A program made the position numbers and the translations under genes. Positions 5,250 through 17,700 of a stretch of DNA of 64,000 nt are shown here, piece by piece (position 1 is the stretch's first letter; every line of letters starts with the position of its first letter). The notes beneath the pieces were generated by a model. It saw only the letters and a list, made by a program, of their open reading frames with translations, was not told the origin of the DNA and ran no database searches. Origin of the DNA: Elusimicrobiota bacterium (GTDB lineage: Bacteria > Elusimicrobiota > Elusimicrobia > FEN-1173 > JAKLIF01). The stretch covers positions 29,171 through 93,170 of the forward strand of contig JAKLIF010000003.1 of assembly GCA_022709755.1 (NCBI GenBank), read 5' to 3'.

Positions 5250-6387
5250 GGGCGGTCTCCGGATCGGTCTTGAACACCCGCTTGGGCGGGGTGTTGTCCT
5301 GGGGCGTCATCGCGTCGAAGATCCTCGGGACGAACAGGTGGAACAGCGGGTTCCGGTGTTTCATATACATGTGGAGTGTGACGACTTCCGCCCCGATCTC
5401 TTTTTTCGGTTCCAGCGTGGTGATGCCCAGGTCGATGTCGCGCATGTCGCGTTCACCGGCCAACGCGATGATGTTGTAGAACAGGTTGAAGTAGAGACAA
5501 TAATCCTCATTGAGACTGTAATCCAGACCGCAGAACAGCGGGATGAGCGTCTCATCGTCGAAGAGCAGAAGAGAGAATGCGACGGGCCGGTCCCCTTTCT
5601 TGACGAGAAGGACCGACGACCGGCCGTTCAAACACTGCCGGATGTTCATGAAAAAATCCTTCGTCAGGCGCTCCCGTTTGTATTCCCGGGCCTGGTCATA
5701 CACGTTGAACCAGAGCCGTTCCAGGTCGGCCGCGTGGGGGGTGAAATCCTCCACCACCTGGACCGTGACGTCGTCGCGTTGGAACTTCCGCTTCCGGAGG
5801 GAGATCTCTTTCCGGTATCGTTTGCGCAGACTGTCGAGATACTGGTCGAAAGTCTTCCATGTCACGTCGATCCGCGTACCGGGCAGGTTGTGGATGCGCC
5901 GGTATCCGAAAGAGAGCAGACTGTCGTAAAAGGGGAGTTCCCTGTCGAGGAAATCGCGGAAGAGGATGACGTTGATCCCTTCTCGTTCGGCGATCCCCTC
6001 GATCGCGGCGCGCAACGCCCCGAGAGCCGCCGCGCGGTCCGTCCCCTCCCGGAACGAGAAGGTCGATCCCAAGGCGACGGGGGTGCCGCATTCCAACGAC
6101 CGTAATATCAGGAAGTCCGGCCAGAAGCGGCGCACCCGACCGATCGCCTTTTTCAGAACGCCCGTGGCGAACAGGTCGAGTTCCGTGCTGATGGTGTAGG
6201 CGCAGGTGTGCGCGACGAGCCGGCCCCCTTCGTAGGCCGCGGGATAGAAGAAACGGCAGTCGTTGATCCCGGACCTCTCGATGGCGGAGGGATACTCATG
6301 GGTGCATATCAGCCGGTTGGGGCCGACGATCCCGTTCCAATCATCCTTCGGCACCGCCTCGATCGTCGTGTGGACCTTGATTTCCAT
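5242..6387 (-). CDS. FemAB-like / BioF2-like GNAT-fold acyltransferase (Acetyltransf_6-like)
   Basis: Internal ATG (MEIKVHTTIEAV...) of the 779-aa track ORF. The upstream 398 codons are Arg/Gly/Pro-rich nonsense overlapping the real AOS gene. The ~380-aa product resembles the FemAB/BioF2-like acyltransferase family that often neighbours alpha-oxoamine synthases. 23-nt gap to the upstream gene. Confidence 0.6.
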   Translation of the reverse strand: MEIKVHTTIEAVPKDDWNGIVGPNRLICTHEYPSAIERSGINDCRFFYPAAYEGGRLVAHTCAYTISTELDLFATGVLKKAIGRVRRFWPDFLILRSLECGTPVALGSTFSFREGTDRAAALGALRAAIEGIAEREGINVILFRDFLDRELPFYDSLLSFGYRRIHNLPGTRIDVTWKTFDQYLDSLRKRYRKEISLRKRKFQRDDVTVQVVEDFTPHAADLERLWFNVYDQAREYKRERLTKDFFMNIRQCLNGRSSVLLVKKGDRPVAFSLLLFDDETLIPLFCGLDYSLNEDYCLYFNLFYNIIALAGERDMRDIDLGITTLEPKKEIGAEVVTLHMYMKHRNPLFHLFVPRIFDAMTPQDNTPPKRVFKTDPETAHD

Positions 6388-7805: not shown

Positions 7806-9065
7806 CTAGAAACGATAGGTCACACCCACCGAAAGGGCCGTGCCGAAATCGTCATACGTTCCGTCGATGCTGGATGAACTGATGGTCTCGTTGTTGTCCA
7901 CGTTGTTGTTCACGTGCACCGTCTTGTAGAAGACGAATTGAAGGGCGGTGTCGATGGTGATGGGACCGCGGGTGTATCCCAACCCCGTGGTCAAAAACTG
8001 GCCGACGGTGTCCTGCAGGCTGGGCCGCCAATGTTCCTCGGGCGCGGCCGGCTGGTTATAGATGTAACCGGCCCTCAGGCGGAGTGGGTCGTTGAGTTTA
8101 TATTCCGCGCCGAGCTTATAGGCGATCGTGTCCCTGTAACCGTATTTGAATGTGGTCGGGGCCAGGGTCGGGTCCTGGTAGTGGACGGTCAGTTTGTCCA
8201 AAGTGCTCCAGTCGGTCCAATCCAGGTTGAATTCGAATTTCCAACGGTCGCCGGGCGTGACGGCATAACCCAACACGACCACGGCCGGATAGGCGATGGA
8301 AGTCTTGGCCTCGCATTTGGACGACGCATTCGCGGGGGGGATCTCCGTGAACGTGGCGTCCCCCTTATACTTCACCGTGAACGGGCTTTTGAACGTGGCA
8401 GCCAGGGTTTGCCGCTCATCGAGCTTATAGGTGGCCCCGGCATTGTAACCCCAGGCGTTCCCATCGGCCGAGAGTTCGCTTCCACCGTCCCATGGAACCG
8501 GAAGGCCATACATCGTGGCGTAGTCGACCTTGCTCTTAAGTTCGGCGGTCGAATGGTAATAGCTGATCCCCACGCCGGCGGAGAACCTGTCCGAGACTTT
8601 CCAGGCCAGGGAGGGATTGACGTCCACCAGGACCAGGTTGGAATAGGTGGTCACATAACGGGCAAACCCCGTTCCGCTCCATTCGCTGGAGATCCCGTTC
8701 GGGACGGTGATTCCGAGTCCCCAACCCCAGGGCCGGTCGGCGCGACGGCCTGTCAGGTAGAAGGCCGGGACGCCCTGCCATTTTTCCAGGTTGCTTTCTT
8801 CCACGCCGGTGGGGCTGGTGCGTTTGAACCATCCGTTCATGATGGAATACTGGCCGGAAACCTGGGTCCCTTCCAGGTTCGTCAATCCCGCCGGATTGAA
8901 GGCGATGGTGGACGGGTCATCGGCCTGGGCGATGAAGGCTTCACCCATGGCGATGGCCTTGGCGCTCTTGACTCCCAGTATCTTGAACCCGTTCGCGGCG
9001 GCGTTGCTCACGAACAACGAACCGCAACAGACGGCTAAAATGATGGATCGGATGGTTTTGAACAT
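7806..9065 (-). CDS. outer-membrane FadL/TodX/OmpP1-family hydrophobic-compound channel
   Basis: Signal peptide MFKTIRSIILAVCCGSLFVSNAAA. N-terminal hatch motif AIAMGEAFIAQADDPSTIAFNPAGL (the NPA motif). Beta-strand-rich, Gly/Tyr-rich sequence ending in an aromatic residue (F). AAGGAG SD upstream. First gene of the operon. Confidence 0.8.
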   Translation of the reverse strand: MFKTIRSIILAVCCGSLFVSNAAANGFKILGVKSAKAIAMGEAFIAQADDPSTIAFNPAGLTNLEGTQVSGQYSIMNGWFKRTSPTGVEESNLEKWQGVPAFYLTGRRADRPWGWGLGITVPNGISSEWSGTGFARYVTTYSNLVLVDVNPSLAWKVSDRFSAGVGISYYHSTAELKSKVDYATMYGLPVPWDGGSELSADGNAWGYNAGATYKLDERQTLAATFKSPFTVKYKGDATFTEIPPANASSKCEAKTSIAYPAVVVLGYAVTPGDRWKFEFNLDWTDWSTLDKLTVHYQDPTLAPTTFKYGYRDTIAYKLGAEYKLNDPLRLRAGYIYNQPAAPEEHWRPSLQDTVGQFLTTGLGYTRGPITIDTALQFVFYKTVHVNNNVDNNETISSSSIDGTYDDFGTALSVGVTYRF

Positions 9066-9094
9066 GAAGATATTTCTCCTTTTTTATATTAAAT

Positions 9095-9111
9095 AACGCA
9101 TTGAATGCGTT
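9095..9111. promoter_or_regulatory. perfect palindrome AACGCATT-g-AATGCGTT followed by a T-run, in the 5' leader of the FadL-like operon; candidate operator
   Basis: Read directly from the sequence. The half-site AATGCG recurs at ~9144 and ~9299 as AATGCGGAA. The region 9066-9460 is ~33% GC versus ~63% for the window. Confidence 0.35.
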
Positions 9112-9483
9112 TTTTTATCACTCAAATCACTTCTTGGACAAAAAATGCGGAACATTTTATACCCAATCGGAAGAACGTGGTGATTTTCATATCCCAATAC
9201 CAGTAAGTTTATCTCCAGATCCGGGTTTTGTCAACTGGAAGAAAGTATGTAGAAAATAGGTACGAAAACTACCAGTTGTAAACCAAAATATGCATTATAA
9301 TGCGGAATTAGCGGTTTTATGGTGATTTTTTGATACTGGAAATTCATATACTCATTTTTCGCCAGAAAACTTCGGATTGTTTTTTTATAGGATTCAATGT
9401 AAATATAGGGTATGGAACATGTGCTGTTCTAACAAGTGAATGAGACCATTTGAACAACTATGAGTTCCGGGGAAAGGACAGAC

Positions 9484-10644
9484 ATGCCGACACCGATCCG
9501 CGTGTTGATTGCCATCGATGTTTCCGACGACGCCCAGTGGCTGCTCGATGAACTTCGTTGCGGGGGCTACTCGCCGGTGTGGAAATGCGTCGTCTCGCTG
9601 GAAGAACTGGGCGATGCTCTCCTGTCGAAACCGTGGGATGTGGTGGTGGCGGATTATTCCACATCGAGTTTCACCGGGCTGGACGTGTTCAACCTGGTCC
9701 GCAAGAGGGGCTTGGATATCCCCGTCATCATCATATCGGACCCCGTGGGGGACATGGACGCGGCCGAGCTCCTCCGCCTGGGCATAGCGGATTTTCTCAT
9801 CAAGGGCCACCTGGAACGGTTGGTCCCCGTGATTGAACGCGAACTCCGCCGCGAGGGGGTCAAGAAAGAGCTGAACGACCTGCGGAGAGAGATGAGGGCG
9901 AAAAGCGAGCAACTCTATCAGGCGAACAAAGTGAGATTTCTGGGCCATCTGGCCGGGGGGATGGCTCACGATTTCAACAACCTGCTCACGGCGATCATCG
10001 GTTACACCGACGTCGTCCTGCAGGATTTAAAAACCGGGAAAGTGAATCGGGAAGATGTGGAGGGGATCCGTCTGGCGGCCCAAAAGTCGGCCGTGTTGAG
10101 CCGCCAGCTGTTGGTGTTCAATCCCCGTCATTCGACGGAACCGCGCCCCGTGGACGTGAACCAATTCGTCACGGACATGGAGAAGATGTTCCAGCGGCTG
10201 ATCGGGGACGGTATCCGACTGGAGCTGGGTTTGGACGCCCACCTCCATCCGGCGGTCGTCGATCCCGTGCATCTGGGGCAGATCCTCTTCAGCTTGGCGG
10301 TCAGCGCCATGGAATCCATGCCCGAGGGAGGGCGCCTCATCATCGAGACGGCCAATGCCCGGTTGGAAGCCATGACCCTCCCTTCGGGAGAGGAGGTCCG
10401 TCCGGGGGACTACGTTCTCCTGGCGGTCAGCGACACCGGTCCGGGGATGGACGCTCATACCCAGTCCCGGCTGTTCAATCCGGCGTTGTCGTCTCCTCCG
10501 GAAGACCATCCCCCGGGGTTGGACACGGCGTACCGCATCGTCAGGCAGAACGCGGGATACATCACGATCTACAGCGAGTTGGGCCGGGGAAAGACCGTCA
10601 AGGTCCATCTGCCCCGGAGTCCGGAACAGTCCGAGAAAGATTGA
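9484..10644 (+). CDS. cytoplasmic hybrid histidine kinase: N-terminal receiver domain + HisKA + HATPase_c
   Basis: REC domain VLIAIDVSDD...VVVADY. H-box FLGHLAGGMAHDFNN. ATPase region SDTGPGMD...GLDTAYRIV...GRGKTVKVHLP. No TM segments. Second ATG chosen because GGAAAGGA sits just upstream. Confidence 0.75.
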   Translation: MPTPIRVLIAIDVSDDAQWLLDELRCGGYSPVWKCVVSLEELGDALLSKPWDVVVADYSTSSFTGLDVFNLVRKRGLDIPVIIISDPVGDMDAAELLRLGIADFLIKGHLERLVPVIERELRREGVKKELNDLRREMRAKSEQLYQANKVRFLGHLAGGMAHDFNNLLTAIIGYTDVVLQDLKTGKVNREDVEGIRLAAQKSAVLSRQLLVFNPRHSTEPRPVDVNQFVTDMEKMFQRLIGDGIRLELGLDAHLHPAVVDPVHLGQILFSLAVSAMESMPEGGRLIIETANARLEAMTLPSGEEVRPGDYVLLAVSDTGPGMDAHTQSRLFNPALSSPPEDHPPGLDTAYRIVRQNAGYITIYSELGRGKTVKVHLPRSPEQSEKD

Positions 10645-10974: not shown

Positions 10975-12294
10975 TTACCAAACCTCGTCGAGGAAGGAGA
11001 GCGATTTCTGACACCACTTGTCCACGAAGACCTTGCGGTTGGTCTCCCGGCACCGGTCGTAGTCGGTGTCGGAATACCCCGTCCCTCCTTCGTGATGGAT
11101 GTAGACGTCTTCGATGAGCAGGAGTTTGAACCCCGCCTGCCTCACTCGCAAGGCGTAGTCGTAATCTTCGTAACCCCCGGGCCCGAACCGTTCGTCCAGA
11201 AGGCCCACCAGTTCGATGACGTTCCGTTTGATGAGCAGGCAGAACCCGTCCAGCCGGGGAACGGACAGCCGTCCTCCCTCGTGTTGGCGGGCCCATCGGT
11301 CGGCGAAGGCATCCAGGTTCCTGAGGGATTTATAGGGGATGGGAGCCACTTTCTGGGCGCCCACCGCGCCGTTGGTGTGCGGTCCGGCCATCCCGGCTTT
11401 GGGGTCCACTTTCATCCGGCGGATCATGCGTTCCAGCCAGCGCGCGGTGACCACGGTGTCGGCGTTGAGCAGCATGATGAACCGGCCGTGGGCGGCGCGG
11501 ATGCCCTGGTTACAGGCCGCGGCGAAAAACTTGTTCTGCGGGTTGTGGATCACGGTCACGTCTTTCACTGATTTAAGGAACTCGGTGGACTTGTCGGTGG
11601 TGCCGTTGTCCACGACGATGATCTCGTAAGGGACGTTGGTGTGTTTCCGGATGCTCTCGAGGCAAGCCCCCAGATAGCGGCCGTCGTTGTGCGTGGGGAT
11701 GATGATGCTGGTCAGATCCGCTTTGGGTGTCAGGGTGTTCTTTTTGAAAGTGTGGGTGCCGATGGCCTTGAACTGGTCGTTGAGCCACGGCCCGATCTTT
11801 GAGACGTCGGAAGGGACCACGGCGGGGGTGATGTGGGGGTCCACGCGGGCGGTCAGCGCATCGCCGTCCCGTTCGGAGCGGGTCCAGACGGCATCGGCCG
11901 TCTGAAGGATCTCCGACCACATCTCGCGTTGACGCAGTCCGTCGGTGGTGCCGGTGAGGTCCCTGAGGAACTCCATGTCCGGCAGAAAGCAGACGAGGGA
12001 CTGGTCGGCCCCGGCCAACTGGCGGAGGGGGAAAAAGTAGCGGTTGATGGCCGCACTGTCCAGAAAAAGGACGGCGGTCAGCGGGGTGTTGGTGAGGATG
12101 GTTTTGGCTGTCTGAAGGAACGAATCGACGTTTCCGTGGGGACTTGGGTGGATGGTCAGAGTGGCTGACGGTGGAACCGTGGGTTTCTCTGAGAGCAGGT
12201 GCAACGACCAACCGGACGAGAGGGCTTTATCGAGACCGCCGGTTTGAGTGTCGCCGGGCCATTCGGACGCGACGAGGAGCAAGTTTTGAGTCAT
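10975..12294 (-). CDS. family 2 glycosyltransferase with an N-terminal domain of unknown function
   Basis: C-terminal half carries the GT2 signature IIIPTHNDGRYLGACLESI...IIVVDNGTTD...DAD-like LLNADTVV ... DYDYALR. Confidence 0.8.
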   Translation of the reverse strand: MTQNLLLVASEWPGDTQTGGLDKALSSGWSLHLLSEKPTVPPSATLTIHPSPHGNVDSFLQTAKTILTNTPLTAVLFLDSAAINRYFFPLRQLAGADQSLVCFLPDMEFLRDLTGTTDGLRQREMWSEILQTADAVWTRSERDGDALTARVDPHITPAVVPSDVSKIGPWLNDQFKAIGTHTFKKNTLTPKADLTSIIIPTHNDGRYLGACLESIRKHTNVPYEIIVVDNGTTDKSTEFLKSVKDVTVIHNPQNKFFAAACNQGIRAAHGRFIMLLNADTVVTARWLERMIRRMKVDPKAGMAGPHTNGAVGAQKVAPIPYKSLRNLDAFADRWARQHEGGRLSVPRLDGFCLLIKRNVIELVGLLDERFGPGGYEDYDYALRVRQAGFKLLLIEDVYIHHEGGTGYSDTDYDRCRETNRKVFVDKWCQKSLSFLDEVW

Positions 12295-12611
12295 GGGGTG
12301 ATTCTATGTTTTTTTGCCCTAAAACGGAAACGTTCCTCATCTCATGAGTGTGAGGACGGTCAAGGCCGCTTGGTCACCCTGAAGCGATGAGCAAGGGATT
12401 TAGGTGGGGATGTGAGTGGGAGAGAGTGGTTAACCTTCTTGGGTATACCGCTGCACTCGACGCCCTGCAAGGAGTAGGAGACGGAACATGGGGGTAAAAT
12501 ATAAAGAGGCAGGTTGTTTCTTGAGTAGGTTTAAAAATTGTTTTTGAGATAGAAAATATATTTTAACAGAAGTAAAAAATACCCAATATTTTGAATGGAG
12601 GAGATAAACTA

Positions 12612-13898
12612 ATGATAAATCCTGAACAAGGTTTTACCTCGGGAGTGATTCGTGAGGCAGATCGTTTTGTTGGTCGCTATGAAGATATTCGTGATTGTAT
12701 TAAAGCAATTAATACGGAGTTGGGACTCGTGGCTGTTTACGGTAAACGAGGTGTTGGAAAGTCTTCAATTCTGAGGCAAATACAACACATGGCACTTGGT
12801 GATTATGGGTTGTCAAAAAAATCAGGACTTGAAAGGGAAATTCCTACGCGCCCTCGAACCTATCTAACAGTGTATTATACTTGTGATTCAATGATTAGAT
12901 CGGGGCAGGATCTTCTCCAGCGGTTATGTAACGATCAGGATCCTGAGGACGGGTTGCTTCGCCTCGTTCCAAATGACGGAAAAGAAATTGTTGAGTTTGC
13001 GAGAACGAAGGAGGTTTCTTTGGGTGCAGATCTAAAAGTTGTTAATTGGGGATCAAAGGGAATCGAATCTTCAAAATATGCCCGAATAATTCCTAACGAT
13101 ATAGTCCAAACATTCCGTAATATGGTTAATGCTATTGTTATACATCAGGTCGAAAAACGAATGAAACGTGACGGTCTCTTAGTATTGCTGGATGAGTTTG
13201 ACGTCATAAAAGATAAAGCAGGATTGGGTTCACTTATAAAGTCATTGAGTAGTGAAAAGGTTAAATTTGGTGTTTGTGGTATTGGTCGGGATTTGACGGA
13301 TTTGGTTAATGATCATGCTTCAATAGAAAGGTTATTGGAGGAAGGGGCTATTCATGTGAAGCCTATGGCTGAAATGGAACTTGAACGCATTATTACTAGA
13401 GCTGAAGAATTGTTCAAGGGCGCTCTTAGTTTCTCCTCAACTGTAAAGGCTAGAATCGCAAAGCTCTCTCAAGGGTATCCCTATCTCGTTCAGTTGTTTG
13501 GAAAGGAATGTGTGGCTGTGGCCAATAAGACATCCGTAAATGAAATTGATGACCATGTGTTTGACATGGTAATAGAGGATATTCAATCCGGTCGGGCGTT
13601 TCCGACGCTTGAGGCTATGTATCAAAAGGCAATTGGTGGTTCTACAGATCGACAGAAATTACTTTGGTTGCTTGCCGAGCATAAAGAAGAGGCCCCTCTT
13701 TATCAGGACGAGTCAGGGCGCATACAACTAAAGAAAGTTCGAACAGATGCTGACGTTTTTGATATACCTTACGTTGACCAACTGCTTCCTCGGTTGATTG
13801 ATGCAAATTATGGGCCGATTCTGTATCGTGAAAAACAGGGTGTTTACGAATTTCTCAATCCTGTATTTCGAGTTTACGTCACTCTTCGCAATATCTAG
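12612..13898 (+). CDS. P-loop NTPase of the archaeal-type ATPase (Arch_ATPase/ORC-Cdc6-like AAA) family; low-GC, probably horizontally acquired
   Basis: FVGRYEDIRDCIKAINTELGLVAVYGKRGVGKSSIL matches the FVGR-x-E-L-x-L...GxRRxGKT N-terminal signature. Walker B is LLVLLDEFD. ~40% GC versus ~63% surroundings. GGAGGAG SD 8 nt upstream of the ATG. The track ORF begins at an upstream TTG. Confidence 0.75.
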   Translation: MINPEQGFTSGVIREADRFVGRYEDIRDCIKAINTELGLVAVYGKRGVGKSSILRQIQHMALGDYGLSKKSGLEREIPTRPRTYLTVYYTCDSMIRSGQDLLQRLCNDQDPEDGLLRLVPNDGKEIVEFARTKEVSLGADLKVVNWGSKGIESSKYARIIPNDIVQTFRNMVNAIVIHQVEKRMKRDGLLVLLDEFDVIKDKAGLGSLIKSLSSEKVKFGVCGIGRDLTDLVNDHASIERLLEEGAIHVKPMAEMELERIITRAEELFKGALSFSSTVKARIAKLSQGYPYLVQLFGKECVAVANKTSVNEIDDHVFDMVIEDIQSGRAFPTLEAMYQKAIGGSTDRQKLLWLLAEHKEEAPLYQDESGRIQLKKVRTDADVFDIPYVDQLLPRLIDANYGPILYREKQGVYEFLNPVFRVYVTLRNI

Positions 13899-14117
13899 TT
13901 GCTTTTTAGTTTATTATGTATGGGCGGGATTGGTTGATGTTTATCTTCTTAATATTTATAAAAAACGATTCCGATCTTGTGTGTAAAAGGATGGGTAACT
14001 AATATAGCGAATGATGCCACAAAAAGAATAATACTTTGATATGCAATCCCCGCTCCTTGTTTATGTTCAACGTCGGCCCTCATTTACTTTCCCAATCCTG
14101 ACTGATAGAATAGCTCC

Positions 14118-15221
14118 ATGGCGAAGGTCATCCTGCAGAACCTCCAAAAAAAATACGCGGAACACGACGTCGTCCGGAACGTGAACCTCGAAATCCCGGA
14201 CAAGGAGTTCTTCATCCTTGTCGGGCCGTCCGGGTGCGGTAAATCCACCACGCTCCGCATGATCGCCGGGCTGGAAGATATCAGCGGCGGGCAGGTGCTC
14301 ATCAACGACCGCGTGGTCAACAACGTCGCGCCGAAAGACCGCGATATCGCCATGGTTTTTCAGAACTACGCCCTTTATCCCCACATGACCGTCTATGAAA
14401 ACATGTCGTTCGGGTTGAAACTCAAGAAAATCCCCAAAAAAGAGATCGATAAACGGGTGAACGAGGCGGCCGATATCCTGAACATCCGGGAATTGTTGCA
14501 GCGGAAGCCCAAAGCCCTCTCGGGCGGTCAGCGTCAACGCGTAGCGGTGGGGCGGGCCATCGTGCGCAAACCACAGGTCTTCCTTTTCGACGAGCCGTTG
14601 TCCAACCTGGACGCCAAGATGCGCGTGCAGATGCGGGTGGAGTTGTCCCGCTTGCACGACCAGCTTCAGACCACCATGATCTACGTGACCCACGACCAGG
14701 TGGAAGCCATGACCATGGGTGACCGGATCTGCGTGATGAAAGACGGCGAGGTTCAGCAGGTGGCTCCGCCGTTGGAACTATACCATAAGCCGGTCAATCA
14801 GTTCGTGGCCGGGTTCATAGGAAACCCGCCGATGAATTTCATGCCGGTGCAGGTCGTCCTTCAGGTGGATTCTTACTGGCTCCTCAATGAGTCTGTCAAT
14901 CTGCGCGTGCCAAAAAAATTCGATGCCCGGATGAAAGCGCTCGTCGGCAAGACGGTCACGCTCGGCATCCGCCCGGAAGATATTTACGACAAACTATTTT
15001 ATGGGACCACCGTTCTGCCGGGAACCACCGTCAAGGCCAACGTGGATGTGGTGGAACCGATGGGTTCCGAGATCTACCTTTATTTGAAAGCCGGGAAACA
15101 AGACGTCATTGCGCGGGTCCCTCCTCAAGTCCAAGCCCACGCCGGGCAGAAGATGGAAGTGGTGTTCAATCTGGAACAGCTTCATCTGTTCGACGCCGAG
15201 TCCGGCCTGTCGTTGATTTGA
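14118..15221 (+). CDS. ABC transporter ATP-binding protein, MalK/UgpC/MsiK sugar-import family, with C-terminal TOBE-like regulatory domain
   Basis: Walker A GPSGCGKST, Q-loop, signature LSGGQRQRVAVGRA, Walker B VFLFDEPLSNLD, H-loop VTHDQ. No cognate permease or binding protein in the window. Confidence 0.9.
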   Translation: MAKVILQNLQKKYAEHDVVRNVNLEIPDKEFFILVGPSGCGKSTTLRMIAGLEDISGGQVLINDRVVNNVAPKDRDIAMVFQNYALYPHMTVYENMSFGLKLKKIPKKEIDKRVNEAADILNIRELLQRKPKALSGGQRQRVAVGRAIVRKPQVFLFDEPLSNLDAKMRVQMRVELSRLHDQLQTTMIYVTHDQVEAMTMGDRICVMKDGEVQQVAPPLELYHKPVNQFVAGFIGNPPMNFMPVQVVLQVDSYWLLNESVNLRVPKKFDARMKALVGKTVTLGIRPEDIYDKLFYGTTVLPGTTVKANVDVVEPMGSEIYLYLKAGKQDVIARVPPQVQAHAGQKMEVVFNLEQLHLFDAESGLSLI

Positions 15222-15286
15222 CCTTTTTGTAAAATCCAAGACATCACGAGTCTGTCCTCCTCCGATTGAGGGAAACGATCCATTTT

Positions 15287-16555
15287 ATGAGACCCAATGA
15301 AGGTAAAAGCATATCCCAAATGATTTTGAGGGCGGTTCTTCTCGCCCTGTTCTCGATCGGCCCTCTCGGCGCACAAGGGCCGGAGTGGATCGACGTGCCG
15401 GGATTGGATTCCGAATACGAATCGGACCGGTTCATGAGCGATATCCCGTGGGATTGGCGCGAATCGTTCTGGGCCTCCCCGTCCGGCGTGCAGATGACCG
15501 GCGGTTCCATGAACATCCGCCATCTTTACCTCCAACAGGACATTAAATTGCGGGTGCCGCTGGTGGAGAACAGATTCTGGTTCCGCTACCGGTATCAGAA
15601 ATTCGACACCCTCGAACGGAATAGGTCCGATTCGCTCTGGGAGTTCGAATATCGGCCGTGGCGCGACTGGTTCGTGTCGTTCCTGGGCGAGCCCCGTTAC
15701 CATAAGGCCGAAGCCAACATGGGGGCGCGGGTCCGGTGGGGGCGCGCCGAGAACCGGTCGGTGGACGCCGCCATACTCTTTCCGAACTTCGACACGAATT
15801 ATGCTTTCCATAACACCTCTGTCAACGAGGGTTACCAGGAGTTCTATGACGATTTTCCAAAGGACGTCCGGCTGACGGCCGTTTGGTCGGGCCACGGCAC
15901 GTCCGTGCGCGCTCAAGCCCGAAAAATGACACTCTGGCGGAAACAGCATCGTGACTTGACCACGCCTTTTGTAGAATATAGGGAGACCGGCGGAGAGACC
16001 GACCTGTCGGTGGAGATGCGATGCCGAGGAGAGCGGTTCGGCGTCACGTTGGAAGGGGAATATTGGGACGAACTTCGGTCCGTGTGGTTTTCTCAGACCG
16101 CTTTCGGCCAGGGCCGCCGGCGCGATCAGGTCCGGCGGTTGGTCCGTCCCGCGGCGGAGTGGTATTGGGACCATACCGGAACGGCGCGGATAGGATTTTT
16201 CACGGTGAGACGACGGGAATCGCTCGTGTATTCGGATCCGGCGGTCGCGTCGCGGTTTGAGCGGCAGAACGAGACGTTGCCGTTCGTTCAGGTCATCAAA
16301 AAGTTCGGGCGGGTGATCGAGGCCGAGATGGCTTATGTCCACGATCGGCAAAGGACCACCCGGGAATACGGCGCCGAGACGTTTTCTAAGAGAGAGGAGA
16401 ACCGTTTGAAATTGGCTTGCGGGTTTCAGTTCACTCCGTCCACGTCGCTCCGGTTGGTGACGGGATGGGAATTGGATAAGCGGGATTTCGGCCGGTTCGC
16501 CTATTTCGACGGCGGAACGGTCCAGTTCCAGGCGGTTTTCGGAGGCGTTCAATGA
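15287..16555 (+). CDS. secreted hypothetical protein, Trp/Arg/Phe/Tyr-rich, possibly an outer-membrane beta-barrel
   Basis: Signal-peptide-like MILRAVLLALFSIGPLGAQG, then alternating aromatic/charged beta-like segments. Start uncertain (15287 or 15320). Confidence 0.45.
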   Translation: MRPNEGKSISQMILRAVLLALFSIGPLGAQGPEWIDVPGLDSEYESDRFMSDIPWDWRESFWASPSGVQMTGGSMNIRHLYLQQDIKLRVPLVENRFWFRYRYQKFDTLERNRSDSLWEFEYRPWRDWFVSFLGEPRYHKAEANMGARVRWGRAENRSVDAAILFPNFDTNYAFHNTSVNEGYQEFYDDFPKDVRLTAVWSGHGTSVRAQARKMTLWRKQHRDLTTPFVEYRETGGETDLSVEMRCRGERFGVTLEGEYWDELRSVWFSQTAFGQGRRRDQVRRLVRPAAEWYWDHTGTARIGFFTVRRRESLVYSDPAVASRFERQNETLPFVQVIKKFGRVIEAEMAYVHDRQRTTREYGAETFSKREENRLKLACGFQFTPSTSLRLVTGWELDKRDFGRFAYFDGGTVQFQAVFGGVQ

Positions 16556-17700
16556 CGGATTCATCGAAGGTCGATCCGATCTGCGGCATGAACGGCCGTA
16601 TTCCAGCCCACGGGAAATGGTTTTGTTCCGAATATTGCGTGCGCCAATACGAATCGGATAACGGACTGCCCGCGGCGACGGTCGTGCCGGAGGCGCGGTG
16701 GGGTTGGATCCGGAAACCCATCGTCTGGGTGGCGGCCGCCGAACTGGTTTTGTTGTTCTTGTCTTATCTCCTGCCCGTCCTGGGCCCTTTCCGCCACGTT
16801 TTCGTGATGTATCTCTATAAGATCGCGGGGCCCGTGCTCGTGGGGTTCTTGATCGGCGGGCTGATAGACCATTACGTGCCGCGTTCTTATGTGTCGGGTC
16901 TCATGGCGGGACATGGCGGCGGGGTCTTGGTGCGGTCCACGGGGCTCGGGTTCATCATGGCGGCTTGTTCGCACGGTATTCTGGCGGTGGCCATCGAGTT
17001 GTATCGGAAAGGAGCGTCGGTCCCCGCCGTGATCGCATTCTTGCTCGCCAGCCCGTGGGCGAACTTGCCGGTGACCATCCTCCTGTTCGGGTTTTTCGGG
17101 TTCAAGGCCTTCGCGTTGATATTCATGGCGCTGGTCGTGGCCCTCACCACCGGTTTTTTGTTCCAGGCGTTGGACCGGAAAGGGTGGATCGAGCGGAACC
17201 CCAACACCGTCGAGACGTCCGCCGGTTTTTCAGTCCGGGAAGACATGAGACGGCGCTGGGCGGAGTATCCGCCGACGTGGTCCCGGTTCTTCAGGGAAGA
17301 CGCGCCCGGTGTGGTGCGAGGGGCTTTCTCCCTGGCCGACATGGTGTTGTGGTGGATCCTCCTCGGGATGGGCCTGGCCGCGCTGGCGGGGGCGTTGATA
17401 CCGCCGCATTGGTTCCATCGGTGGATGTCCGCCTCGTGGACGGGGTTGGGCGTCACGCTGTTGCTGGCCACCGTCATGGAGATCTGTTCCGAAGGGACCG
17501 CGCCGTTGGCTTTCGAGATCTATCGACAGACGGGCGCGTTCGGGAATGTGGCGGTGTATCTGATGGCCGGCGTGGCGACGGATTATACGGAGATCGGGTT
17601 GCTCTGGAGCACGATCGGACGGCGGACGGCGTTCTGGTTGCCCGCCCTGACCGTGCCGCAGGTGGTCTTATGGGGAATGTTGTTCAATACGCTGTTTTGA
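16552..17700 (+). CDS. TRASH/YHS metal-binding domain fused to a DUF318-type (ArsP/YraQ-like) permease
   Basis: N-terminal DPICGM...CSEYC is a YHS/TRASH-like Cys motif, followed by ~8 predicted TM helices. ATGA overlap with the upstream gene stop. Confidence 0.7.
   Translation: MTDSSKVDPICGMNGRIPAHGKWFCSEYCVRQYESDNGLPAATVVPEARWGWIRKPIVWVAAAELVLLFLSYLLPVLGPFRHVFVMYLYKIAGPVLVGFLIGGLIDHYVPRSYVSGLMAGHGGGVLVRSTGLGFIMAACSHGILAVAIELYRKGASVPAVIAFLLASPWANLPVTILLFGFFGFKAFALIFMALVVALTTGFLFQALDRKGWIERNPNTVETSAGFSVREDMRRRWAEYPPTWSRFFREDAPGVVRGAFSLADMVLWWILLGMGLAALAGALIPPHWFHRWMSASWTGLGVTLLLATVMEICSEGTAPLAFEIYRQTGAFGNVAVYLMAGVATDYTEIGLLWSTIGRRTAFWLPALTVPQVVLWGMLFNTLF

Follow-up and report, generated by a model that had tools for sequence, protein, structure and literature searches.

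The nSTAND1 clade of bacterial counter-invader systems was named by Kaur et al. (eLife 2021, PMC8195603), and TIR and calcineurin-like phosphoesterase domains are among the effector classes described for such systems (PMC8195603). We analysed a relative of this clade encoded in a 64,000-nucleotide stretch of an Elusimicrobiota bacterium metagenome-assembled genome (MAG; GenBank assembly GCA_022709755.1, contig JAKLIF010000003.1, positions 29,171 to 93,170), which we refer to as the window and in whose positions all coordinates are given. The gene (12612..13898, + strand) encodes 428 amino acids plus the stop, and its product is a stand-alone STAND/AAA+ NTPase with an nSTAND1-type core, a lid and a winged helix; a database protein of 428 amino acids (P0001) is 100% identical to it. 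It is the single intact gene, on the + strand, of a sharply bounded low-GC block, and we firmly conclude that this block was acquired horizontally, recently and as a single gene, and that the gene encodes an effector-less STAND-like NTPase that stands alone. The protein is an nSTAND1-like STAND NTPase, not an Arch_ATPase/DUF234 protein. It belongs to a clade of tightly conserved proteins of ~430 amino acids whose gene, an accessory one found on its own, wanders from one bacterial phylum to another.

We first placed the start of the gene and read its motifs. The open reading frame (ORF) called mechanically opens at TTG 12591, and the likelier start is ATG 12612, because a Shine-Dalgarno sequence (GGAGGAG, 12597..12603, +, read from the sequence) lies 8 nt upstream of it and every homologue aligns from that methionine. 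Conservation across the family was computed over 79 members sharing 26–77% identity. Ahead of the P-loop stands F19-V-G-R22 (12666..12677, +; 97–98% conserved), followed by an invariant Walker A motif, GKRGVGKS, at residues 44–51 (12741..12764, +) and a Walker B motif, LDEFD, at residues 193–197 (13188..13202, +), in which D194 and E195 are invariant. The FVGR, GxRGxGKS and DEFD signatures that an earlier, sequence-only reading of this DNA (hereafter the first-pass annotation) had reported can thus be read directly from the protein, and as STAND motifs FVGR-Y-E, GKRGVGKS and LLDEFD are 91–100% conserved among the 79 members. After the sensor-1 strand comes D234-H-x-S-x-x-R240 (13311..13331, +), with H235, S237 and R240 each 96–97% conserved family-wide; R240, which would fall at the position of the AAA+ Box VII arginine, may serve as an arginine finger or a sensor. 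The helical lid contains the GxP motif G288-Y-P290 (13473..13481, +; glycine 100% and proline 98% conserved). Residues invariant or nearly so throughout the family comprise F8, F19-x-G-R22, Walker A, Q56, D194-E195, K210, G223, H235-x-S237-x-x-R240, M252, G288-x-P290, G297 and F414. Predicted secondary structure, conservation and superposition of the full chain on AAA+/winged-helix proteins together delimit a C-terminal helical and winged-helix-like domain at residues 314–428 (13551..13895, +), whose conserved residues are Y337, S344, R347, L351, L395, F414, Y422 and R426.

An insertion at residues 108–160 (12933..13091, +), modelled with low confidence, separates helix alpha2 from the Walker B strand. 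Within the close clade this insertion is highly conserved; in distant clades it varies. We considered a PD-(D/E)xK-like nuclease motif within it (D122 ... D140-L-K142) and rejected this candidate: the motif is not conserved outside the close clade, and the two structural models described below disagree there, with a predicted local distance difference test (pLDDT) score below 50.

Profile searches assign the protein to a known class. Only one Pfam family passed its cut-off, nSTAND1 (PF20703; 37.0 bits versus 27.1, E = 4.2e-9), through a partial match of residues 21–273 to profile positions 11–201 of 379. AAA_16 scored 29.4 bits, below its cut-off of 32.6, and Pfam yielded no HTH, LuxR or SARP domain and no additional domain anywhere in the 428 residues. 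The first-pass annotation had described an archaeal-type P-loop NTPase of the Arch_ATPase/ORC-Cdc6-like kind, an assignment that survives at the level of fold and fails at the level of sequence. With Pfam ATPase_2/Arch_ATPase (PF01637) the match was limited to the P-loop (residues 26–65), and its 19.8 bits fell short of the 33.2 required; Pfam ORC-CDC6-like (PF24389) reached 11.1 bits against 27; and the NCBIfam Orc1/Cdc6 model TIGR02928 reached 25.8 bits against 181.3, with nothing in NCBIfam above cut-off. The DUF234 domain it had raised for the C terminus gave no Pfam match at E up to 1. The label 'archaeal-type' is itself misleading, every named relative being bacterial.

To describe the fold, we used two AlphaFold2 models built from different alignments (pLDDT 81.5 and 83.9, predicted template modelling scores 0.81 and 0.82). 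Both predict an AAA+ alpha/beta core (residues 23–250), a helical lid (254–307) and a C-terminal helical and winged-helix unit (314–425), the last made of helices at 314–356 and a helix/strand unit at 370–425, with pLDDT mostly 83–97. Residues 122–155, inside the insertion, fall below a pLDDT of 50 in both models and differ in secondary structure between them. Foldseek searches of the PDB with either model were led by SSO1545 (2fna, E ~5e-10), Cdc6/Orc1 (1fnn, 2qby, 2v1u) and PAB2304 (2qen); ORC subunits came next, RuvB and clamp loaders followed, and CED-4 and the NRC1 NB-ARC domain ranked lower. A BFVD fold search returned generic clamp-loader and AAA+ matches only, and two different profiles found no significant relative among PDB sequences.

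These structural neighbours resemble the protein in architecture and little else. SSO1545 and PAB2304, the best and the fifth- to seventh-best matches for both models (E = 5e-10 to 2e-8), share its AAA+ core, lid and C-terminal winged helix at a similar size (template modelling (TM) score 0.53–0.57, normalised by target), yet they superpose at 12–15% identity and were not recovered by the PDB profile search. Their Arch_ATPase family (PF01637) differs in turn, since the window protein scores below its threshold, has no DUF234 and has named homologues that are all bacterial. Orc1/Cdc6 proteins have the same core, lid and winged helix (structural E 1e-9 to 1e-8), and TIGR02928 matches locally from Walker B to the sensor region; in contrast, TM scores reach only 0.40–0.56, the full model is far from its cut-off, the window protein bears the GxP lid motif as a STAND mark, and most loci have no origin or replicon context.

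A GxP motif in the lid and hhGR(E) before the P-loop are reportedly hallmarks of STAND proteins. The window protein has hhGR(E) together with Walker A and an acidic Walker B, GxP in the lid and a predicted winged helix after the lid. What it lacks is the tripartite STAND plan: neither an effector or adaptor at the N terminus nor a TPR, WD40 or LRR sensor at the C terminus is present, and core, lid and winged helix take up the entire chain in the models. Against nSTAND1 specifically, the likeness consists of the Pfam match, FxGR, Walker A and B, the GxP lid motif, the winged helix after the lid, and the presence of TIR and calcineurin-like phosphoesterase fusions among relatives. The differences are the missing effector, adaptor and repeat sensor, the partial profile match, a length of ~430 amino acids (more than 800 in typical STAND proteins), a DHxSxxR motif that is strictly conserved, and ~50 inserted residues specific to the clade. 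Avs families and bNACHT proteins are alike in their P-loop switch ATPase, lid and winged helix, in their sporadic occurrence in accessory regions, at some loci beside other defence genes, and in the TIR or nuclease-class effectors that the window protein's relatives carry. Unlike them, the window protein has no sensor repeats that recognise phage proteins, no effector domain and no PADLOC match, and it reaches at most a third of their size. Architecturally, the clade is a minimal form of a known class. Current records name its members only 'AAA family ATPase' or 'nSTAND1 domain-containing NTPase'; the former could be improved to 'stand-alone nSTAND1-like STAND NTPase with a C-terminal winged helix'.

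The composition of the locus sets the gene apart from its surroundings. GC content is 59.2% over the whole window, 39.7% over the interval named in the first-pass annotation (12480-14110) and 41.5% over the coding sequence. A two-change-point likelihood fit placed the block edges at 12495 and 14155, with GC of 0.396 inside and 0.584 outside and a log-likelihood ratio of 74. We set the right edge instead at 14117, the final base ahead of the ATG (14118) of the next gene, giving a block of ~40% GC at 12495..14117. Across the 64 kb, the block is the lowest 1600-bp window (z = -7.1; the minimum elsewhere is 0.525). GC at third codon positions (GC3) is 0.333 in the ATPase gene versus a mean of 0.745 (standard deviation 0.07) for 68 other ORFs of the window, a set filtered for GC3 > 0.62 that includes some overlapping shadow ORFs. 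The compositional drop is thus confined to one gene and its flanks, as the first-pass annotation had it, and it was also right about the setting. The block fills part of the divergent intergenic region between a family-2 glycosyltransferase (GT2) gene on its left (10975-12294, −) and a gene for a MalK-type ABC ATPase with OB_MalK/TOBE domains on its right (14118-15221, +).

On the 5' side, the AT-rich leader contains a sigma-70-like promoter candidate (12563..12592, +; TTAACA, a 16–18-nt spacer and AATATT/TATTTT) that scored 9/12 in a consensus scan; the scan is weak evidence, with 6 sites seen versus 3.9 expected. The AT-rich 3' flank (13899..14117) holds no ORF, has no Rfam match and folds no better than shuffled sequences (fold z-score +0.8). 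A promoter-like site for the MalK-like gene lies in its final 35 bases, at 14083-14111.

We then looked for traces of how the block arrived. There is no tRNA in the whole 64-kb window, the genes lying from 5.2 to 19.7 kb include no integrase or other mobility gene, and the repeats that surround the block, direct or inverted, are all short with none above chance level, which agrees with the earlier report that integrase, tRNA and obvious direct repeats are absent. The GT2 orthologues closest to that of the window (50–53% identity) show different synteny, adjoining GcpE with neither a MalK gene nor the ATPase, and a metagenome scan with the GT2 protein recovered only a relative of 32% identity. 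The block accordingly resembles a genomic islet in its deviant composition and patchy phylogenetic distribution, and not in insertion marks.

A 16-nt imperfect inverted repeat (81% complementary) joins 12292-12307 (CATGGGGTGATTCTAT) and 14105-14120 (ATAGAATAGCTCCATG). It covers the start codons of both bracketing genes, exactly at the outer limits of the receiving intergenic region. We judged it to be due to chance.

Close relatives of the protein are scattered widely. The close clade contains >120 listed proteins of 427–452 amino acids with 62–77% identity to the window protein. Homologues of 60–77% identity come from at least five bacterial phyla, with sources in Elusimicrobiota, Pseudomonadota, Syntrophomonas, Terriglobales and Verrucomicrobiota. 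Pseudomonadota hosts include Burkholderia gladioli, B. multivorans, B. ambifaria, Pseudomonas alcaligenes, Caldimonas, Luteibacter and Rhizobacter; those in Verrucomicrobiota are Lacunisphaera and one other MAG. Copies usually fall below the GC of their flanks, by 15–25 GC points in P. alcaligenes (0.45 versus 0.69), Caldimonas (0.50 versus 0.71) and Lacunisphaera (0.44 versus 0.63). More than 120 alignment columns are invariant among 46 aligned close-clade sequences. Synonymous sites are saturated (proportion of synonymous differences, pS, 0.81–0.91; nonsynonymous, pN, 0.17–0.28), so the gene is old, mobile and under strong purifying selection. A sister clade of ~33% identity, found chiefly in Bacteroidota and cyanobacteria, likewise comprises lone proteins, and their length is the same.

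Further out, an exhaustive search gathered 1475 representatives at E up to 1e-3. Ten longer representatives were scanned and all had an extra domain: TIR in one, Metallophos in six (at the N or C terminus) and KTSC in three. These fused relatives share 24–30% identity with the window protein, and four that we aligned keep the entire module of ~410 amino acids, with F-x-P ... FxGR at its N-terminal end and Y-x-F-x-D-P at its C-terminal end. A match to phrog_6841 (E = 1e-29; function not annotated) indicates phage-borne relatives, and four IMG/VR contigs carry relatives of 53–64% identity. Plasmid relatives (23–30% identity) are also lone; one on a Clavibacter plasmid lies near DUF4238 and Fic genes.

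As a separate observation, metagenomic contigs with close homologues are mostly 1.4–4 kb long, scarcely longer than the gene. Assemblies that break at gene edges would seem to fit strain-variable or multiple contexts within samples.

Comparing genomic neighbourhoods suggested that the gene travels by itself. Similarity between loci at the DNA level (blastn) opens at the ATG and closes at the stop codon, and no ORF within 3 kb is common to 15 independent loci by all-against-all blastp and a lenient comparison of upstream ORFs. With similarity bounded by start and stop and no common neighbour, the surviving unit of transfer is the gene alone. We accordingly discarded two candidates: a conserved partner gene, and a non-coding element co-travelling with the gene, against which the lack of an Rfam match, the 3' flank without significant structure and the limits of the blastn similarity all speak.

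What does lie beside the gene varies from host to host. Close-clade copies adjoin type I restriction-modification (RM) methylase and specificity subunits (L014), an AbiU/AIPR protein (L009), an SpbK-like TIR protein (L011), PDC-S31 (L010), IS21 (L018), serine recombinases (L029 and L030), a TrfA gene or fragment with pieces of insertion sequence (IS) in Caldimonas (L001), and a PDC-S15 (FRG) gene within a B. gladioli prophage that also has integrase, HicB, HNH and capsid genes (L005); another copy sits among plain housekeeping genes (L006). In the sister clade, one copy is cargo of an integrative and conjugative element (ICE), beside AAA_15/21 and Mrr-type genes and adjoining relaxase, TraG and ParA genes (L035), a second is beside an AAA_15/21 ATPase (L036) and a third is among housekeeping genes (L034). 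All told, a PADLOC-matching neighbour occurs within ~3 kb in 5 of ~15 independent close-clade loci; in the sister clade, AAA_15/21 ATPases adjoin the gene at two loci. In the window itself, the neighbours are housekeeping genes. The earlier remark that lone NTPases of this kind are frequent in defence islands and integrated elements thus describes the homologues, which adjoin RM, AbiU, TIR, PDC, prophage, IS21 and ICE genes, and does not describe this locus, where there is no defence island.

Two of these loci have features of their own. On one IMG/VR contig (L028), a 146-amino-acid ORF (5540-5980 of that locus) lies directly upstream of the ATPase gene; both are similarly low in GC (0.45 and 0.43), against a locus average of 0.57. 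Its N terminus, read by eye, resembles a ribbon-helix-helix (Arc-like) protein, it is absent from the other loci, and it may be a co-transferred regulator. In Caldimonas (L001, 3311-4762 and 7379-7543 of that locus), a block of TrfA fragment, 116-amino-acid membrane ORF and ATPase gene is bordered by IS sequence on both sides, with a DDE transposase gene at one border and a 54-amino-acid ORF matching part of that transposase at the other, which suggests a composite-transposon-like arrangement.

What might such a protein do? On balance we favour, by a modest margin over doubt, a role for the clade in conflict with mobile elements, as phage or plasmid defence or abortive infection, because it combines sporadic cross-phylum spread, foreign composition, frequent defence or mobile neighbours and nSTAND1-like effector fusions in relatives. 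The defence role, trigger and output that follow are what we infer from these patterns. As a minimal STAND-type AAA+ NTPase, the protein would be a nucleotide-switched sensor. As in the standard STAND switch, a trigger would promote an ATP-bound oligomeric state; the trigger is probably a nucleic acid or a protein, recognised by the winged-helix domain or by the conserved insertion. In the fused relatives, this oligomer would activate the attached TIR or metallophosphoesterase effector. In the effector-less form, the output could be the oligomer itself, binding DNA or another nucleic acid through the winged helix or burning ATP; alternatively, an effector might be supplied in trans.

Several results weigh against a defence role. 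With no effector domain, the output step is the weak point of the proposed mechanism. PADLOC-DB 2.0.0 (5027 models) gave no significant match, the best scores being mad8 (E = 0.015) and PDC-S27 (E = 0.017) over ~35–40 residues around the P-loop only, and none of the ten flanking gene products in the window matches a defence model apart from a generic ABC-ATPase match of the MalK-like protein. The tentative association with defence neighbours elsewhere comes from a handful of loci with no background rate. More than 120 columns invariant across phyla would be unusual for an arms-race sensor. Searches of 50,697 phage genomes (tblastn) and of E. coli genomes (blastn) found no match, and the literature yielded no study on the clade under nSTAND1, Cdc6-like anti-phage ATPases or AAA_16. 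We regard the locus as a reasonable candidate immunity gene, and not as a new kind of system.

Other explanations deserve weighing alongside a role in mobile-element conflict. The fold likeness to Orc1/Cdc6 and ORC subunits, with the winged-helix C terminus, is what would be expected of an ORC/Cdc6-like ATP-dependent DNA-binding protein serving the maintenance or replication of plasmids, ICEs or prophages, left behind by a decayed element and without an immune role. Some contexts point the same way: the Caldimonas copy follows the TrfA gene or fragment, a 23%-identical relative on Yersinia pestis pMT1 comes directly after parA/parB, a sister-clade copy lies beside the relaxase, TraG and ParA genes of an ICE, and relatives occur on the four IMG/VR contigs. 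However, most copies, including that of the window, have no replication or mobility gene within 3–6 kb, and the Orc1/Cdc6 model scores far below its cut-off. Conflict systems, and not replication initiators, typically show the kind of fusion to TIR and metallophosphoesterase domains that this module has, and a decaying remnant would not retain >120 invariant residues under strong purifying selection; we consider such an accessory unlikely. About equally unlikely, in our estimate, is a split system, in which a sensor or adaptor ATPase, inert alone, would activate an effector encoded elsewhere (TIR, nuclease or phosphoesterase) or plug into host STAND systems. Effectors fused in cis in relatives imply that the module evolved to control an effector, the sole catalytic domain of the lone form is its ATPase, and TIR, AbiU or AAA_15/21 genes adjoin it in some hosts. 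Yet the 15 independent loci share no conserved partner, and a gene moving alone between phyla cannot depend on a specific partner in each new host. A further possibility, that the ~430-amino-acid clade is a self-sufficient single-gene immune system consisting of the NOD module only (NTPase, lid and winged helix), strikes us as similarly doubtful. Under it, an ATP-driven oligomer on invader nucleic acid would be the effector; it might, for example, block replication or packaging or drain ATP. Were it true, the clade would represent minimal, ancestral-like STAND/NLR immunity, and its lone movement between phyla would be explained.

A cellular role is less probable again. Bacterial STAND ATPases include the transcription activators MalT and AfsR, and the gene, with its predicted C-terminal winged helix, lies head-to-tail upstream of the MalK-type gene; it could be a small MalT- or AfsR-like regulator whose winged helix acts on host genes and whose MalK-like adjacency is functional. 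Its foreign composition speaks against this, as do the absence of MalK or any other conserved neighbour at every other locus, the absence of a detected HTH, LuxR or SARP domain, and a distribution that is sporadic rather than lineage-wide. Finally, as the source is a MAG and composition changes abruptly at both edges, we considered assembly chimerism or contamination. This is the least credible explanation by far: contigs from different samples (JGI 3300025706 and Logan SRR4244739) span both junctions and are 100% identical to the window across them, and 6 contigs were reported with the ATPase protein, 4 of them collapsed as similar places.

If the clade protects alone, STAND/NLR-type immunity would be possible without a dedicated effector or repeat sensor, and the gene itself, short (1.3 kb), highly conserved and simple to clone, would be a candidate for defence available in at least five phyla. 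If it is not protective, the locus is still a clean single-gene horizontal insertion without detectable mobility marks, in the poorly sampled Elusimicrobiota.

The surroundings of the block hold further features. A second AT-rich patch (9066-9459, GC ~0.33–0.37) fills a 394-bp divergent intergenic region between a gene for a FadL/TodX-type outer-membrane protein (7806-9065, −) and one for a hybrid response-regulator/histidine-kinase (9460-10644, +). With no ORF of at least 60 amino acids wholly inside it, this patch is probably a regulatory region and not an insertion. On the other side of the block, the MalK-like ABC ATPase gene has no permease or binding-protein gene within ~5 kb. Its product matches PADLOC mad3 (E = 3e-31) and mad8 (E = 4e-11), matches most simply read as generic ABC-ATPase similarity because the protein has OB_MalK and TOBE domains. 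Downstream of it, a 429-amino-acid ORF (15266-16555) without a Pfam or PADLOC match is mirrored by a 460-amino-acid antisense ORF (15182-16564). An ArsP-type permease gene overlaps the stop of the 429-amino-acid ORF by 4 nt, which suggests that the two form an operon.

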